Shown piece by piece: positions 3,815 through 11,558 of a stretch of DNA of 34,491 nt. Position 1 is the first letter of the stretch, and every line of letters begins with the position of its first letter. The DNA comes from Methanobacteriota archaeon (GTDB taxonomy: Archaea > Halobacteriota > Methanosarcinia > Methanosarcinales > Methanogasteraceae). The DNA lies in contig JAYEGZ010000121.1 in assembly GCA_034659315.1 (NCBI GenBank), positions 1 through 34,491 on the forward strand, read 5' to 3'. The translations under genes were made by a program, and so were the position numbers. The notes beneath the pieces are model-generated. The model saw nothing but the letters and a program-made list of their open reading frames with translations. It did no database searches and was not told the origin of the DNA.

Positions 3815-3900
3815 TTCTTTTCCTCACATAGCTAAGCACCGGTTCACAAACCTTGCATCTCTATTCGGATGGTTATGCGCAGCGCCATGTTGTTTAATCT

Positions 3901-3953
3901 ATGCCATGATGTGGATGCCATGATGCCATGTACTATGTGCTATGGTGCCATGC
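3901..3953. repeat. clustered ATGCCATG repeats in a divergent intergenic region
   Basis: ATGCCATG occurs at 3901-3908, 3915-3922 and 3923-3930 (the last two in tandem). TGCCATG occurs at 3947-3953 and GCCATG at about 3884-3889. Confidence 0.5.
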
Positions 3954-4153
3954 AAACCAGTTATAGCGTATAACAATGGGTTTACTTGTAAAAAAACATT
4001 GCCCTAAATGTGTGATTGTTATACTACATGGTGTTAGCTGGCATCTGTGGATATTCACAGGCAAACATGAAACTTGCATAGGGCATCAGCCGGCACCCTC
4101 CTGCTGCAATACACCCGCAAGCCATAATAGTAAAATAATACCACAATACTCCT

Positions 4154-5095
4154 ATGGACCAACCTGCCCGGGAAACCGCATGGAACACAACCCGGATGAA
4201 CGCCCCCGGATCAATGAGCGTCGTCTGTATAGCGTTTGTGCTGTCGCTGTACGTGATTGCATGCATACCAGCCTGTGCCGGAAATGTCCATGAGGCAACC
4301 ATCTTCTACTTTGATGGCGACATCAAGACCGGTCGCGCCATAGATCTGGAACAGGGCTACATGCTCCGGGTCAAGGAGGTCATGAATGACAGCGCGACGA
4401 TCGACATATCAAATGGCGGTAAGAAAATTGAAACCCATGATATATCCAAAGAGAGTTCTTATACGCTTGAAAAGAGGCTTGGCGACATTAATTACGACAT
4501 CATAAAAATATCGCTGGTAGGAGCTAATACTACGTCAAACACGGTTTCGTTGACCATTGAACAGCACATCGATCCTGATCGGTCATTTGATTACCCTTTG
4601 ATCAGCGATGTGTCTGCAAACATAGGGGAAGGCGACCGGGAACATTTGGAGGAAGACTACGAACTGAGGGTGGAGTCTATTGCTGACAACAACGCCATTC
4701 TGACGCTGTACAAAGGGGATGAAACAGTTAAACATGAAAAATTGTATGTAGACGATCCCGATAAGAGGCGGTTTGTGTATATGAAGAAGATCGGGAGCGA
4801 CTATCACACCATTCTGTTTGTGGAACTGGCCCGGGTGTCATTGGACGCGGAGGGCGGGGTTGCGCACCTGCGCGGGCTTTCGCAGTTCAAGGATCCTGAA
4901 TACATCATAATGGACGATTTAGAAGAATCCGCGCAGGTGAACGAATCATTACCAAGTGACTGCAGCGGCAGTGATAACTGGAACATTCGGCTTGCAGAGT
5001 CCGCGGCTTTCAGATATCTGTTGAGTGGTTGCGTGTTTGCCGCCATATTCGTATTGATCCTCTCAGTTACAAGAATGGGACAGAAACGCAGGTGA
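4154..5095 (+). CDS. surface protein with signal peptide, two S-layer-like half modules and a C-terminal TM anchor
   Basis: Hydrophobic N-terminus MSVVCIAFVLSLYVIACIPACAG. There are two related segments: LEQGYMLRVKEVMNDSATIDISNGGKKIE and LEEDYELRVESIADNNAILTLYKGDETVK. The C-terminal TM is CVFAAIFVLILSV followed by the basic tail RMGQKRR. Alternative ATG starts are at 4196 and 4214. Confidence 0.7.
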   Translation: MDQPARETAWNTTRMNAPGSMSVVCIAFVLSLYVIACIPACAGNVHEATIFYFDGDIKTGRAIDLEQGYMLRVKEVMNDSATIDISNGGKKIETHDISKESSYTLEKRLGDINYDIIKISLVGANTTSNTVSLTIEQHIDPDRSFDYPLISDVSANIGEGDREHLEEDYELRVESIADNNAILTLYKGDETVKHEKLYVDDPDKRRFVYMKKIGSDYHTILFVELARVSLDAEGGVAHLRGLSQFKDPEYIIMDDLEESAQVNESLPSDCSGSDNWNIRLAESAAFRYLLSGCVFAAIFVLILSVTRMGQKRR

Positions 5096-5153
5096 TCATA
5101 TAGATACAGGACGTAATACGAAGCATCGCACGGATTACCAGGTTAGGAAGGCG

Positions 5154-5588
5154 GTGGTGCAGGATGTGGATCAGGTGCATGAACTGGTCAATGGATATGC
5201 CGGGGACGGGACTATGCTTCCGAGATCGCGTAGCGAGTTATATGACCGAATCAGGGATTTTACAGTCTGTGCAAGCGAGGATCAGCTGCTCGGGTGCTGC
5301 GCGCTTCATGTCTGTTGGGATAATCTTGCAGAGGTCATATCCTTTGCAGTGCGGCAGGATGCGCACAATCAGGGCATTGGTTCGCTGCTTTTACACGCGT
5401 CTATGAGCGAGGCGCAGGAACTCGGAATCGATACAATCTTCACGCTTACCCGCGCACCAGGCTATTTTCGGAGATATGGGTTTGTGGAGGTTGATAAGGA
5501 TGTGCTTCCGCACAAGGTATGGGGCGAATGCATCAAATGTCCGAAGTTCCCTGATTGCGACGAGGTTGCGCTGGTGCGGGAATTATAG
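5154..5588 (+). CDS. GNAT family N-acetyltransferase
   Basis: Acetyl-CoA binding motif VRQDAHNQGIGSLLL (Q/RxxGxG), followed by YFRRYGF. GTG start, 144 aa. Confidence 0.8.
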   Translation: MVQDVDQVHELVNGYAGDGTMLPRSRSELYDRIRDFTVCASEDQLLGCCALHVCWDNLAEVISFAVRQDAHNQGIGSLLLHASMSEAQELGIDTIFTLTRAPGYFRRYGFVEVDKDVLPHKVWGECIKCPKFPDCDEVALVREL

Positions 5589-5768
5589 GCTTGCCAAAAG
5601 AATAAACGGTTAAAATTTGGGGCATTCGTGTAATCCGTGATAAAAACTGACAGAACCCGATACAATTACCGATAAACACCTGCAATTAGGGTGTAGCGAT
5701 TTGGATAAAATGAGCAATATCTTTATAAGTATTGGTCATTGCAACGCGAGATACCAGGAGACCAAAAA

Positions 5769-5922
5769 GTGTGTGAAGTGAGTTGAAAAAACTAATGGAT
5801 TTCATGAGATTAACACACGAAGATTGTTGTACATGCAAGATATTGGTGATATGTTTGCGTTTTATATCCCACCCCCTCGTACATTCTTGTGGAAATCCGT
5901 GTAATCGTGCGGTTAGCTACAC
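5769..5922 (-). repeat. MITE-like palindromic element, copy 1 (inverted orientation, one degenerate end)
   Basis: The reverse complement aligns along its length with 8669..8822. Shared blocks are TAGCTAACC..GATTACAC.GATTTCCAC....GGATATAAAACGCAAACATATCACCAATAT...GTTTTTTC. Confidence 0.8.
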
Positions 5923-5954
5923 GTACGATAAAAAGAATAACGATGAACGTGAGA

Positions 5955-6305
5955 ATGTTTGTTATGCCTCATAAATGCGCCAACTGCGAACACATCTTCG
6001 ATGATGGTGCAGCCAAGATACTGGATGGCTGCCCAAACTGCGGGTGGAACAAGTTTCTGTATGTGCCGGCAGAACCTGAGACTGAAGACGTGCCCGATAC
6101 TGAAACGCAAGTGGATACACCTGAGGTGGTGGAAGAAAAGCCCGATTTGAAGGTTGAATCGATCCGCATACTCGATAAAGGCTCTTACGAGCTAAATCTT
6201 GAAGCACTGCTTGAGCGGGAAGAGATCATAATGTCTCTACAAGAGGATGGGCGGTATATCGTGCATCTGCCATCAGTTTTTGAGAAGAGCAAGAAACACC
6301 AGTGA
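5955..6305 (+). CDS. conserved archaeal Zn-ribbon protein
   Basis: CANCEH...CPNCGW (CxxC-N17-CxxC), followed by an acidic linker and a conserved C-terminal domain. I start it at ATG 5955 because the track's 5889 start lies inside repeat copy 1. Confidence 0.75.
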   Translation: MFVMPHKCANCEHIFDDGAAKILDGCPNCGWNKFLYVPAEPETEDVPDTETQVDTPEVVEEKPDLKVESIRILDKGSYELNLEALLEREEIIMSLQEDGRYIVHLPSVFEKSKKHQ

Positions 6306-7281: not shown

Positions 7282-8619
7282 TTATACAAACAGCTTCTTC
7301 ACCTTTGCCAGTGCCGGCGCCAGCGCGAAGATTACCACCCGGTCGCCTGCCTGGATCTGGTGCGTGCCCCGCGGTACGATCACCTCGTTCCTGCGCACGA
7401 TCATGCCGATGATGGCGCCTTTCGGAAATTTGATCCGACCAAGTGTCTTCTTTGTTATCTTTGCACCGGGCGATGCGACCAGTTCAACCAGCTCGGCTTG
7501 CTTTTCCTCAATAGCGGCGAGCGATTCGACCCCTGCGCCCGCGGTGACGCGCAGGACGCTGTTGATGGTTGCATATTTTGGAGACAGCGCCGCGTCGATG
7601 CCAACTCGCTCAAACAACTCCATATACTCCGACCGATCGACCTTGGCGATGATCTTCCGGGTGCCAAGTTGCTTTGCGAGCAGCAGACAGAGCAGATTTC
7701 TTTCATCGCTATCGGTTGCTGCAATGACCGCATCCATCTCAGCAACACCCTCAGACTTTAGCATCATCTCGTCGGTGCCGTCACCGTGCAACACAAGTAC
7801 GCCAGGTAGCATGTCAGCGATCTCTACGCACCGCTCCGCATCCGCCTCGATGATCTTGAGGTCGGTGTCGCCATGTTTTGCGAGCAGTTTTGCGATGTAG
7901 AACCCAACGGTGCCTGCGCCGATTATCATGACCTTGTTGTGCTGGCTCGGCGTGTCACCAAACAACTCTCCAATCTCCTCTATCGACTCTGGTTTGCCGA
8001 TTACAATCACATGGTCACCTTCGCGCATGACATCGTCACCATGCGGGATGATCACATCATCGCCCCGGATCAACGCACTGATAACGCAGCAATCAGGAAT
8101 CCTGGCATCAGCAAGTGGTATCTCGTCAAGTGCCGTATCAGGTCCCACCTTGAACTCGATCATCTCGACTTTGCCTTCGGCGAACGCATCCATGCTAACC
8201 GCAGACGGTATCGATATGATCTCAGTAACCACTGATGCAAGTGTCAGTTCAGGGCAGATCATATAATCGATTCCGATCTGCTCCCGATTGGTGATCGGCT
8301 TGTTGATATAATCCGGGCTTGAGACTCGGGCAATCGTCATGCATTTCCTTGCGACTTTTTTTGACAGTAGTTTTGCCGCAATGCATGCAACGATATTAAT
8401 CTCGTCGTTGCCTGTGACCGCAACCACGAGATCCGCCGGAAAAGCACGCTTCAAGATATTAATATCCGCACCATTCCCCTGAAGGACTTGCACGTCCAGA
8501 TCATTCGCTCGTTCGCAAGCTTCCTCTCGTTTATCGATGAGAATAATGTCGTTATTTGCGTACAGCGCCTTCGCGATCGAGTGTCCGACCTCACCGGCAC
8601 CGATGGTTACGATTTTCAT
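7282..8619 (-). CDS. trkA: Trk-type K+ transport NAD-binding regulatory protein TrkA (two RCK N-C units)
   Basis: It has two Rossmann motifs, IGAGEVG and IGAGTVG, each followed by an RCK_C-like segment. 445 aa. No trkH is in the window. Confidence 0.9.
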   Translation of the reverse strand: MKIVTIGAGEVGHSIAKALYANNDIILIDKREEACERANDLDVQVLQGNGADINILKRAFPADLVVAVTGNDEINIVACIAAKLLSKKVARKCMTIARVSSPDYINKPITNREQIGIDYMICPELTLASVVTEIISIPSAVSMDAFAEGKVEMIEFKVGPDTALDEIPLADARIPDCCVISALIRGDDVIIPHGDDVMREGDHVIVIGKPESIEEIGELFGDTPSQHNKVMIIGAGTVGFYIAKLLAKHGDTDLKIIEADAERCVEIADMLPGVLVLHGDGTDEMMLKSEGVAEMDAVIAATDSDERNLLCLLLAKQLGTRKIIAKVDRSEYMELFERVGIDAALSPKYATINSVLRVTAGAGVESLAAIEEKQAELVELVASPGAKITKKTLGRIKFPKGAIIGMIVRRNEVIVPRGTHQIQAGDRVVIFALAPALAKVKKLFV

Positions 8620-8668
8620 CCAATCAGGATTGTGCTTATAAGGAGTTAATGATTTTGCTTGTGGGTGT

Positions 8669-8822
8669 GTGTTTAGCCAACCATAAGATTACACAGATTT
8701 CTACGAGAAAATAAGAGGCGGCAGGATATGAAATGCAGACATATCACCAATATTTTGTAGGTACCGCCACATTCTTGTGCCAATTCCGTGAAATCTCGTG
8801 GTTTTTTCGCTCAGCTAAACAC
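8669..8822 (+). repeat. MITE-like palindromic element, copy 2 (best preserved)
   Basis: Perfect 9-bp terminal inverted repeats: GTGTTTAGC at 8669-8677 and GCTAAACAC at 8814-8822. Internal inverted blocks are CCACGAG / CTCGTGG-type and GATTACAC / GTGAAATC. Confidence 0.85.
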
Positions 8823-8841
8823 ATACGCTTGTGGAAGTTCC

Positions 8842-9843
8842 CTAAAATCCCATCGCCTTATTCGTCTTCCTGATCGACTTTGCGAAGTCTTGCTCGGTCT
8901 CTGTCATCGACCTAATACAATCGACGTTTTCAGGGATTACGTCAGATTCCTGGTGTATTGCCTGGAACAGATACAATTCCCGATCCGAAACATTGATCGA
9001 GGCATCCCACACGCAGTTCTCCCACATGTCGCTTCTCGGACGATTCATATCGCGTGCCAGTTCCATGATCTCGGCGGTAGAGGTGATACCCTCTCCGACA
9101 AACCGGATCCTTGAGTTCTCGCCCAGTACATCAATCACATCGCGTGTTGTGCAATCCTGTTTCAGCACCATGTTCAGGATGTGCAGATGCATAAGCGTCG
9201 TTGGAACCTTGATTGCAACGGTATCAATGTTGATGTGCGGCATCACCGTAGCTACATCAGGTCCATGGTGAGACGGCATCTTCAGTTCGGGTATGATTGC
9301 GTTGATCGGACCTGTCTTAACGTCTCCGGGGTCAGCCGACCGCCTGCATAGTGTTGCGCGCACCTTTTCGACACCATAAGCCGCATCGAGCGCAGAGATG
9401 ACTCTGGAAAGCCCGGTTGTGTTGCAGGAGACGACTCTTGCATAATCGCATCCGAACGCTGCATCATAATTCGAGTGTGCATTAAACGAGATTCCGGCGA
9501 GTTCGTGGTCTTCACCGCCCTGCCAGATCGCTTTTATGCCCGCGGCATCGTATACGGACTTATTCCCGGCACCGATCTTGCCCGGGGTGCAGTCCACAAC
9601 AACGTCCCCCGCTCTGAGCATATCATCGACGGTACCGCTGATCTCCATGCCCGCACTCTTGAAATCAGATTCCCTGCCAGCAAGCACATAGAGTGGAAAT
9701 CCTTTGTCAAGCGCCATCCGCGCCTCAAAGTTAGGACGTGTCTTTGCAACACCTGCAATCTCCATATCCGGCTGAGCCTCGACGGCATCTGCCACACGCT
9801 TTCCAATCGTGCCATACCCATTAACTACTACTTTTACCGACAT
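8842..9843 (-). CDS. gap: type II (archaeal) glyceraldehyde-3-phosphate dehydrogenase
   Basis: MSVKVVVNGYGTIGKRVADAV Rossmann N-terminus and the catalytic SCNTT motif. 333 aa. Confidence 0.93.
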   Translation of the reverse strand: MSVKVVVNGYGTIGKRVADAVEAQPDMEIAGVAKTRPNFEARMALDKGFPLYVLAGRESDFKSAGMEISGTVDDMLRAGDVVVDCTPGKIGAGNKSVYDAAGIKAIWQGGEDHELAGISFNAHSNYDAAFGCDYARVVSCNTTGLSRVISALDAAYGVEKVRATLCRRSADPGDVKTGPINAIIPELKMPSHHGPDVATVMPHINIDTVAIKVPTTLMHLHILNMVLKQDCTTRDVIDVLGENSRIRFVGEGITSTAEIMELARDMNRPRSDMWENCVWDASINVSDRELYLFQAIHQESDVIPENVDCIRSMTETEQDFAKSIRKTNKAMGF

Positions 9844-9847
9844 ACCA

Positions 9848-10030
9848 TCATTCCTTTATCTGTATTATTGCTACTTCATTCGTTATATCAATCTCGGCGA
9901 TTGTTCCATGTACAGCCGTAACATCACCAAGAATGCTTCGCAGTTCGATAGAACCTGCGTCCACCTTGATATACACCACATCTTCTGCAAGAATTGTTCT
10001 GTCTGGTTTCATCACTGTAAGTTCGCACAT
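9848..10030 (-). CDS. CooT-family small (putative nickel-binding) protein
   Basis: 60 aa starting MCE. The layout matches the CooT family (MCE...V..I.....I.L....G....V.G.I..I). Its stop is 4 nt before the gap start. Confidence 0.6.
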   Translation of the reverse strand: MCELTVMKPDRTILAEDVVYIKVDAGSIELRSILGDVTAVHGTIAEIDITNEVAIIQIKE

Positions 10031-10045
10031 AATCTTTAACCTCGC

Positions 10046-10471
10046 CTATTTAGGACTGACCGGGGCAAAACCGTTCAATGCCTTTGGTCTATCAATCATC
10101 TTCGGTTGTTCGATGCTTTTTGGCGCACCTGTTGCTTCCGGCAGGGCAACCATACGATATGCAGGAGGCGGCCGTTCTACCTTTAATATCTGTGCCGTCT
10201 CCGGAACTTCAGCTATTGTAGAAGTGTCCGTTTCGTGTTTTTTATGATTCGCGCCGTCTACTTTGCCCATGAGGTACCGCTGTTTAAGCAGATCTTCGAT
10301 GCCATATCCTGTGGCACGTGCGATCTGTTTGTTATACGCTTCAGCAACCCAGCCAATCTCGGAATGGTGGTAATACCCGACCTCAGAACCAAGTTTGTAC
10401 ATCGCCTCAAGGAGTTCGGTCCGCAGAGATTCACTCATGGGTTTGAGATCTTTTTTCTTTTTGAAGTGCAT
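10046..10471 (-). CDS. hypothetical protein, partner of the KaiC-like ATPase
   Basis: ATG 10471 lies 6 nt after the KaiC-like stop. The N-terminal ~75 aa look helical (LRTELLEAMYKLGSEVGYYHHSEIGWVAEAYNKQIARATGY), followed by a Pro/Ala-rich tail. I recognise no family. Confidence 0.6.
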   Translation of the reverse strand: MHFKKKKDLKPMSESLRTELLEAMYKLGSEVGYYHHSEIGWVAEAYNKQIARATGYGIEDLLKQRYLMGKVDGANHKKHETDTSTIAEVPETAQILKVERPPPAYRMVALPEATGAPKSIEQPKMIDRPKALNGFAPVSPK

Positions 10472-10477
10472 GGTCAA

Positions 10478-11227
10478 TCACTTTATGCGATCCAGAACCT
10501 CGATCCCCTGCTTGTTGAACCTGATCCTCCGCATGTCACAATCATGCTCGGTACCGCGCATCTTAATGACCTGTATCGCACGGGTCATAGCGTCATCACG
10601 CATGAAATTGTGCATGAAGATGACACCGCTTGCAGCGAACTGTTCGGTGCTGTATGTGTTTGGATCAGTCAGTTCTGACAGAAGGATCGTTGTGCAACCA
10701 AGTTTCCTCAGGTTCCGCATGAATCTGCCAAGTTCCTTCTCCTCCTGTGAACGCTCACTTGTCGTAAATCGTATCGCAGACACCGAATCGATCGTCACTC
10801 TCTTGATCTGGTACTGCTTCACAAAGTTGTTGATCTCCTTGTACACGATGTATGGTGAAGGTGGCTCGGTCTCTGGCGCTGGCTCTGACATCTCGTCATA
10901 GCTGGTGGTGATCACGCTGTGCAGTTCCTCACCATAGCCATACTCAAGCGTCGGACCAAGGTCTAAGAAGAATAGTTTCTTTAGTTTGATCAATGTCGAC
11001 ACATTCAGGGCATAATTTGACATGTCGCTGACAATATTCTGCGGGCTTTCAGAGAGTGTCACGTACAACCCGAGTTCCCCAACTGTTGCCCCATAAGTCA
11101 GAAACTGCGTCCCAAGCGTGGTTTTACCACTGCCTGGTGGACCACTTACCAGATACACCCTGTTCTCGATCAGTCCCCCTTGGATTAATTCATCGAATCC
11201 TGCGATTCCAGTTTTCTTCCGCATCAT
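10478..11227 (-). CDS. single-domain KaiC/RecA-like ATPase
   Basis: GIAGFDELIQGGL...VSGPPGSGKTTLGTQF (Walker A) and a Walker B-like RVTIDSVSA. The C-terminus MRGTEHDCDMRRIRFNKQGIEV is typical of KaiC-like proteins. Confidence 0.88.
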   Translation of the reverse strand: MMRKKTGIAGFDELIQGGLIENRVYLVSGPPGSGKTTLGTQFLTYGATVGELGLYVTLSESPQNIVSDMSNYALNVSTLIKLKKLFFLDLGPTLEYGYGEELHSVITTSYDEMSEPAPETEPPSPYIVYKEINNFVKQYQIKRVTIDSVSAIRFTTSERSQEEKELGRFMRNLRKLGCTTILLSELTDPNTYSTEQFAASGVIFMHNFMRDDAMTRAIQVIKMRGTEHDCDMRRIRFNKQGIEVLDRIK

Positions 11228-11405
11228 TGTATAACTCCCTTAAACCAATAATTTCTATGCAATACATTAGTTATAAACATGTTGGTGATTGTTGGGCGGA
11301 TTTGCGAGGCTATTTAATCCGCCTGAAACCCCCGGAAAAACTGCCATCATCCATGCACACATTTTTGCGCGTGCAAGCTCGCGCGTCTGGCATGGTTGGT
11401 AGGGA

Positions 11406-11479
11406 TGGGCTCGCTGCGATTCGAACGCAGGATCCCCGCCGTGTGAAGGCGATGTCATAACCGACTAGACCACGAGCCC
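11406..11479 (-). tRNA. tRNA-Val (anticodon CAC), no intron, CCA not encoded
   Basis: The reverse complement is GGGCTCGTGGTCTAGTCGGTTATGACATCGCCTTCACACGGCGGGGATCCTGCGTTCGAATCGCAGCGAGCCCA. It folds as a 7-bp acceptor stem, D arm, anticodon loop TTCACAC and T loop TTCGAAT. Confidence 0.93.
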
Positions 11480-11558
11480 ATGACTAATGGTTTAGAGTAT
11501 GGATAACAATATAAAGATTACGTGAACAAAGCGGATATGACCAATGTGGACATGACCA

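Follow-up and report, generated by a model that had tools for sequence, protein, structure and literature searches.

Few putative signaling proteins of the archaea are as abundant, or as poorly understood, as the KaiC-like ATPases. Single-domain members of this family were reportedly proposed as signal-transduction hubs by Makarova, Galperin and Koonin in 2017. Here we describe a locus in which the genes for such an ATPase and for a small partner protein lie directly in front of the genes for a CooT-family protein and a type II phosphorylating glyceraldehyde-3-phosphate dehydrogenase (GAPDH, encoded by gap). The locus is located on contig JAYEGZ010000121.1 of assembly GCA_034659315.1, a 78%-complete genome of an anaerobic methanotrophic (ANME) archaeon of the ANME-2c group in the family Methanogasteraceae, and the 34,491 nucleotides (nt) that were analyzed are referred to below as the window. 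The CooT protein of Rhodospirillum rubrum (RrCooT) is dimeric, with one Ni bound per dimer at a Kd of 9 nM, and Cys2 is involved in the binding (PMC6006190). An NTPase usually takes part in the maturation of nickel enzymes, and CooT is believed to help CooC (PMC6006190). We propose that the locus probably arose in one lineage by the operon fusion of two older two-gene modules, each conserved independently, one formed by the ATPase and its partner and the other by the CooT-family protein and GAPDH.

Four minus-strand open reading frames (ORFs) are tightly packed at this locus in the order kaiC-like, partner, cooT and gap, with spacers of 6, 15 and 4 nt. The initial annotation of the window had described four nearly contiguous genes with this spacing, and both the ORFs and the gaps between them agree with it. 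The genes, with protein lengths in amino acids (aa), are as follows:

10478-11227, minus strand: KaiC-like ATPase gene (249 aa, single-domain, RecA superfamily)
10046-10471, minus strand: gene of the cognate partner (141 aa; ATG at 10471, 6 nt past the kaiC stop)
9848-10030, minus strand: CooT-family gene (60 aa, N-terminus MCEL; 15 nt from the partner gene)
8842-9843, minus strand: gap, the gene of type II phosphorylating GAPDH (333 aa; 4 nt from the cooT ORF)

Alternative starts for the partner are a TTG two codons upstream, which gives 143 aa, and Met12, chosen by some gene callers, which gives 130 aa. The 141-aa start is preferred because the MLFKKK N-terminus is kept in distant relatives.

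A KaiC-like gene lies directly upstream of the partner gene, on the same strand, at 123 of 125 loci, and the other two loci are cut by contig ends. By survey, the pairing was found at 20/20 loci, at a further 20/20 that include paralogues, at 78/80 named loci (from ANME-2, Methanolobus, Methanococcoides and Methanomethylovorans) and at 5/5 loci from three other families of the phylum. The ATPase and its small partner, which had been described initially as a module, are thus a dedicated pair. The genes around the pair differ between lineages, so the pair is regarded as a self-contained unit. Methanolobus, Methanococcoides and Methanomethylovorans hold one or two pairs, in unrelated neighborhoods; in the first two of these genera the neighbors are a SpoIIM-like membrane protein together with an EF-Tu-like GTPase on the opposite strand, or S-layer-like proteins. 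A second pair occurs in the genome of the window itself (contig C50, locus L021), where a kinase gene (3867-5162) is followed by a kaiC-like gene (5152-5838) and a paralogue of the partner gene (5845-6246). This kinase is a PAS-like HisKA/HATPase_c protein whose stop overlaps the kaiC start, and the arrangement resembles a kinase-KaiC-adaptor operon.

Fusion proteins of the partner family bear on the same pairing. One member, P0122, consists of the partner domain, a linker and then a KaiC domain, and this natural fusion provides Rosetta-stone-type support for a physical partnership of ATPase and partner. In P0120, the three-helix domain of the partner is preceded by REC and followed by V4R, and the protein is encoded after a histidine kinase (L151, 1491-2657). 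P0114, P0098 and P0099 carry the three-helix domain fused to V4R alone, and other members are fused to coiled coils. The REC, V4R and kinase contexts place the three-helix domain in signal transduction, and it may dock on the KaiC-like hexamer.

The second module was found to be far from peculiar to this genome. Across the order, gap lies directly downstream of cooT on the same strand at 26 of 30 loci. A sample of the phylum comprised 201 genomes, 65 of which hold both PF10133 (CooT) and TIGR01546 (type II GAPDH), and cooT is adjacent upstream of gap in 54 of these 65, with a spacing of 12-193 nt. When divided by family, adjacency was observed in 30/31 genomes of f9, 4/4 of f19, 18/28 of f4 (in seven more of which the two genes lie within 0.7-14 kb), 1/1 of f3 and 1/1 of f1. 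The position of a CooT gene before GAPDH, which had at first been called unusual, is therefore the normal one in the phylum. The neighbors of cooT in the window are the partner gene and gap, not a carbon monoxide dehydrogenase (CODH) operon, and the conserved genomic partner of the CooT-family protein in these archaea is GAPDH, not CODH. No paper describing a CooT-GAPDH link was found, although literature matches for "CooT" are swamped by the Coot crystallography software. In the Methanosarcinaceae, genes for an ARMT1-like (DUF89) phosphatase, CooT, GAPDH and a protein of the inositol-monophosphatase/fructose-1,6-bisphosphatase family lie on one strand (L048, 605-3176; L044, 3-2766), and these surroundings could be a sugar-phosphate cluster.

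Both modules are joined in three ANME-2 genera of the family of the window (g1, g2 and g4), where 15 loci with the four-gene order were found; 13 named ANME-2 records with the same order may largely represent the same genomes. Synteny across the Methanosarcinales had been raised in the initial annotation, and the outcome is divided: the order does extend beyond this genome, to these three genera only, but not across the Methanosarcinales, in the rest of which the two pairs are separate. The arrangement is not attributable to chance because the same order and equally tight spacing recur in three genera, and both are held down to a partner identity of about 50%. Across the 13 ANME-2 loci, the spacers measure 1-37 nt between kaiC and partner, 8-21 nt between partner and cooT and 2-15 nt between cooT and gap. 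The following elements of the window bear on its transcription and translation:

11265-11287, minus strand: promoter-like block of archaeal type, CACCAACATGTTTATAACTAATG, conserved upstream of kaiC
11277-11271, minus strand: TATA box TTTATAA, about 45 nt upstream of the kaiC ATG
10039-10043, minus strand: Shine-Dalgarno sequence GAGGT, inside the 15-nt partner-cooT spacer
11403-11480, minus strand: tRNA-Val(CAC), 175 nt upstream of kaiC

The block CACCAACATGTTTATAACTAATG, which combines a transcription factor B recognition element (BRE) and the TATA box, is near-identical at the 13 orthologous loci of the three genera while its surroundings diverge, and no other non-coding block is strongly conserved. 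In most of the 13 loci the partner-cooT spacer carries a Shine-Dalgarno sequence, either GAGGT or GGTGA. No partner gene was detected in genus g3 of the same family (0/12 genomes). The layout there is a divergent DJ-1/PfpI gene followed by cooT, gap and trkA, and the ATG of cooT is preceded at about 30 nt by a TATA box, AAAGTTTTATCT. Other families with an unfused cooT likewise carry a TATA-like box just upstream of it. In the fused lineages this proximal cooT TATA box is gone, and the Shine-Dalgarno site stands in its place. A scan for promoters and terminators of bacterial type returned counts at shuffle level, and it is uninformative because the host is an archaeon.

The distribution of the fusion also bears on whether the four genes form a single functional system, in which the KaiC-like ATPase and its partner would sense the energy or nucleotide state and exert a post-translational effect on GAPDH, either directly or via the CooT-like metal-binding protein, thereby gating gluconeogenic flux. 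Such a system would be consistent with the retention of order and tight spacing in three genera down to about 50% partner identity, with a cooT-gap pair that lacks a proximal promoter there, and with a gap that is the only type II GAPDH gene found in the genome. We nevertheless consider it unlikely, since the KaiC pair and cooT-gap are separate outside the three ANME-2 genera, genus g3 is without an orthologous pair yet keeps cooT-gap with its own promoter, the pairs of Methanolobus, Methanococcoides and Methanomethylovorans sit in unrelated neighborhoods, and the second pair of this genome lies behind a histidine kinase and not a metabolic gene.

Transcription was assessed using assembled metatranscriptome contigs from four public runs, which derive from environmental relatives at 90-99% identity. 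RNA contigs cross the kaiC/partner junction (10405-10551, 10325-10482 and 10354-10504), the partner/cooT junction (9992-10250 twice, 9992-10301 and 9859-10071) and the cooT/gap junction (9653-10021, 9688-10021 and 9818-10021). Over 11200-11407, three of the four runs show zero RNA depth and the fourth (X28) a depth of about 1, and the depth then rises inside kaiC. A DNA run from the same study covers this spacer, which argues that the signal in the RNA runs is RNA and not contaminating DNA. The tRNA-Val gene was considered as a member of the operon and rejected; it is on the same strand, but RNA depth from the tRNA to kaiC is at the values just given. The same tRNA gene occupies this place in the orthologous loci (upstream sequence of L076 and L078). 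Given the spacing, the loss of the promoter at cooT and the RNA contiguity, transcription of all four genes from the kaiC promoter is the best-supported reading. Co-transcription had been suggested initially from spacing; it is now backed by the conservation of that tight spacing, by a sole conserved BRE/TATA upstream of kaiC and by contigs over all three junctions. Translational coupling is plausible in view of the gaps of 4-6 nt.

Several observations weigh against the fused operon as we describe it. The RNA contigs carry neither strand information nor mapped 5' ends, and the transcription start is a predicted one. Summed RNA depth on gap and cooT is several-fold above that on kaiC and partner in three runs. 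Within cooT, some 45 nt before the gap ATG, there is an A/T-rich, TATA-like stretch, GATATAA, which is a candidate promoter. On the side of the protein pair, an AlphaFold2 model of the P0122 fusion made from the single sequence has a predicted local distance difference test (pLDDT) score of 42, with no interface legible. The higher depth on gap and cooT could result from an internal promoter in the partner or cooT coding sequence, from differential mRNA stability or from cross-mapping of gap. Contig depth was rejected as a test for an internal promoter; it is unreliable, the depths being summed over organisms and gap being more conserved than kaiC.

If an internal promoter were the main source of cooT-gap transcripts, then the juxtaposition would have no regulatory consequence and the junction contigs would represent weak read-through. 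The RNA depth over cooT and gap in the three runs would fit this explanation, as would TATA-like strings in the 3' region of cooT and in the tail-coding region of the partner, where the A/T-rich ATATTAAA lies near 10185. These candidate strings, however, fall in codons that vary between orthologues (AQILKV to AQMPNL, for example), and the conserved Shine-Dalgarno sequence before cooT replaces the TATA box of the unfused lineages. Junction-spanning contigs were recovered in four independent RNA runs, and gap gains extra depth from other ANME species, whose sequences cross-map to it at the 90% identity threshold. We thus regard read-through from a silent juxtaposition as rather improbable, and transcription of the fused operon from the kaiC promoter is retained in what follows.

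At the protein level, the KaiC-like ATPase matches PF06745 over residues 5-246 (E 5e-47; 160.5 bits against a cut-off of 26.6) and falls below all NCBIfam equivalog cut-offs. Comparison with solved KaiC structures aligned it best with the CI domain of KaiC. In this alignment the Walker A motif GPPGSGKT is intact, the Walker B motif IDS is present, and LSES is aligned with FEES of CI, so that one of the two catalytic Glu residues is kept; an insertion of about 20 residues relative to CI lies at roughly residues 96-130. It is one of about 20 KaiC-domain matches in this genome. Identity with circadian KaiC (NF006799 / TIGR02655) was rejected, as the protein has a single domain and not two in tandem, and it scores 138 bits against 408 and 100 against 546. 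Neither kaiA nor kaiB is adjacent to the gene among its neighbors at the locus. By sequence, the ATPase is a member of the KaiC-like family and not circadian KaiC. A role in anti-phage defense was also rejected: PADLOC gave the ATPase only matches of P-loop length, at 17-19 bits, and gave none for the partner or CooT. No paper was found linking KaiC with ANME-2, Methanolobus or Methanococcoides.

The partner protein has no match in Pfam or NCBIfam at E<=0.1 and none in PADLOC, and a sequence-profile search of the PDB returned only "antitoxin" noise at E>0.1 on the disordered tail. The initial annotation had recognized no family for it and had described a helical N-terminal domain with a Pro/Ala-rich tail; these searches and an AlphaFold2 model built with a 36-sequence alignment bear out both statements. 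The model contains helices at residues 14-34, 41-54 and 59-84 with pLDDT of about 90, which form a three-helix domain (residues 14-84), followed by a Pro/Ala-rich tail (residues 85-141) that is predicted to be disordered (pLDDT 50-65). Alignments revealed a conserved N-terminus, MxFKKK, and a tail ending in (D/E)RPxxLxGFxP. Invariant residues form two clusters, one in the loop between helices 1 and 2 (LGxEVGYHxHSEIGWV) plus Y66-G69-K70-G73, and the other in short tail motifs (P111, P117, RP129, L132, G134 and F135). The family comprises 128 clusters in a profile search of 1.84 billion representative proteins. It is present in 22 of the 201 genomes of the phylum sample, in a few lineages of one phylum, and 31 of the 61 related genomes carry homologues, frequently two each.

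A Foldseek search of the PDB with the partner model gave no match at E<1 (best E 2.0). C-terminal domains of KaiA (e.g., 5JWR, 1R8J and 1Q6A) recur among the top matches, non-significantly, at E 2-10 and template-modeling (TM) scores of 0.23-0.37. A KaiA-like fold was rejected for the partner on these non-significant matches and on the lack of sequence similarity to KaiA in the PDB profile search. As separate observations on the family, the proteins with the REC-domain-V4R and domain-V4R architectures are metagenomic, and one of them is encoded next to a second V4R protein. The partner gene is also tandemly duplicated behind a single KaiC-like gene in some genomes, as in the ANME-2 metagenome-assembled genome AUK006 (L082, 6001-6963) and at L114 (3025-4145), where both copies are followed by a stop and then by more conserved sequence.

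The CooT-like protein matches PF10133 (E 1.7e-13) with 51.1 bits, above the cut-off of 27. When 16 homologues were combined into a profile, it matched the solved structures 6FAN (E 2e-6) and 5N76 (E 7e-4) along their entire length and brought Cys2 into register, and the small protein is therefore taken as a true CooT-family member by sequence. All 31 CooT sequences (the window protein and 30 homologues) begin with MCE, and PF10133 is single-copy in 58 of 61 related genomes. Beside GAPDH, such a protein could be a nickel or thiol chaperone, a buffer or a regulator. Because nickel-enzyme maturation is generally NTPase-based, with CooT thought to assist CooC (PMC6006190), and because ATPase and CooT are co-transcribed here, the ATPase and partner might by analogy with CooC-CooT be an NTPase-driven metal-insertion helper for the CooT-like protein. 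This appears highly improbable to us. At the loci examined, the ATPase-partner pair is never beside cooT outside the three ANME-2 genera; KaiC-like proteins are of RecA type and CooC is of MinD/SIMIBI type; and the other fusions of the partner domain are to signaling domains (REC, V4R), not metal-handling ones.

The GAPDH matches NF003251 (E 2e-152; 507 bits against a cut-off of 185) and TIGR01546 (446 bits against 233), and the catalytic-cysteine motif VSCNTTG is present in its translation. It is the only type II GAPDH found in this genome (one match). The other genes flanking the locus encode a tRNA-splicing endonuclease (divergent), trkA, purQ and purS. Between the gap stop at 8842 and the trkA start at 8619, either 8636-8827 or 8728-8810 is missing from RNA and DNA contigs of related populations. 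These contigs resemble empty-site alleles of an element similar to a miniature inverted-repeat transposable element (MITE), which, if so, is polymorphic among ANME-2c strains.

A mechanism consistent with the proposed fusion can be outlined as follows. The first module pairs a single-domain KaiC-like ATPase with a dedicated partner, the three-helix domain of which probably docks on the ATPase ring; the disordered tail, with its conserved short motifs, could bind a target or be a substrate. The nucleotide or phosphorylation state of the ATPase may control exposure of the tail motifs, or the reverse, and the two proteins would together be a switch of the "KaiC signaling hub" type that responds to nucleotide or phosphorylation state. 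The second module is the widespread combination of a CooT-family Cys2 protein with the gluconeogenic type II GAPDH. In the ANME-2 lineage of this genome, the first module came to lie directly upstream of the second, cooT lost its own promoter and gained a Shine-Dalgarno site, and all four genes are now probably transcribed from the promoter upstream of kaiC. The demonstrable effect of the fusion is co-expression. The KaiC pair could conceivably also regulate CooT or GAPDH directly, though nothing observed at the locus supports this, and control of carbon flux by the KaiC pair, or via metal, is speculation.

A wider reading combines two proposals, and we find the combination doubtful. The first is that CooT of methanogens and ANME belongs with type II GAPDH as its dedicated companion instead of maturing CODH; it could serve as a Cys2-based metal buffer or chaperone, or could protect or tune the catalytic cysteine of GAPDH as a regulatory subunit, and in ANME-2c the CooT-GAPDH pair may have been placed under a KaiC-type energy-state switch. 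The second is that the three-helix domain is an unnamed KaiC-docking adaptor, which may be reused with REC and V4R and may be the functional counterpart of KaiA/KaiB for archaeal single-domain KaiC.

The locus offers two testable leads, namely the KaiC adaptor domain and the conserved CooT-GAPDH link. An obligate, family-specific partner with a natural KaiC fusion provides a concrete and testable ATPase-adaptor pair that is present in cultivable Methanolobus and Methanococcoides. The near-universal position of cooT before gap across several families of methanogens and ANME puts the "CO dehydrogenase accessory" label of archaeal cooT in question and points to an unexplored link at the triose-phosphate step. 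In the uncultured, methane-oxidizing ANME-2c, transcription of the one type II GAPDH found seems to pass through a signaling gene pair.

Compared with known systems, the ATPase shares with other archaeal KaiC-like ATPases one RecA-type KaiC domain, intact Walker A and B motifs and many paralogues per genome, and it shares with the proposed archaeal KaiC-like hubs a place in an operon beside a small variable partner, joined in the paralogous locus by a histidine kinase. It is nearer to CI of cyanobacterial KaiC (E 6e-48) than to the solved archaeal proteins PH0186 (2ZTS), PH0284 (2DR3) and SSO2452 (2W0M) (E 2e-22 and weaker). In contrast to known archaeal KaiC-like systems, the partner here belongs to a family that has no Pfam or NCBIfam model and is limited to few lineages. 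Like cyanobacterial KaiA, the partner is a small, all-helical protein encoded beside a KaiC-family ATPase; the present pair differs from KaiA-KaiC in the three helices and long disordered tail of the partner and in the single domain of the ATPase. The likeness to KaiA is at most a functional analogy, which serves as a lead only, and no homology is claimed. The CooT-family protein resembles CooT of Rhodospirillum rubrum (5N76) and Carboxydothermus hydrogenoformans (6FAN) in its length of about 60 residues, PF10133 domain and invariant Cys2, but it differs from CODH-accessory CooT in that its gene stands immediately before that of type II GAPDH and in no cooS/cooC operon. GAPDH itself is a full-length, equivalog-level match to archaeal type II GAPDH (TIGR01546 / NF003251), an ordinary enzyme of which the operon partners alone are notable.

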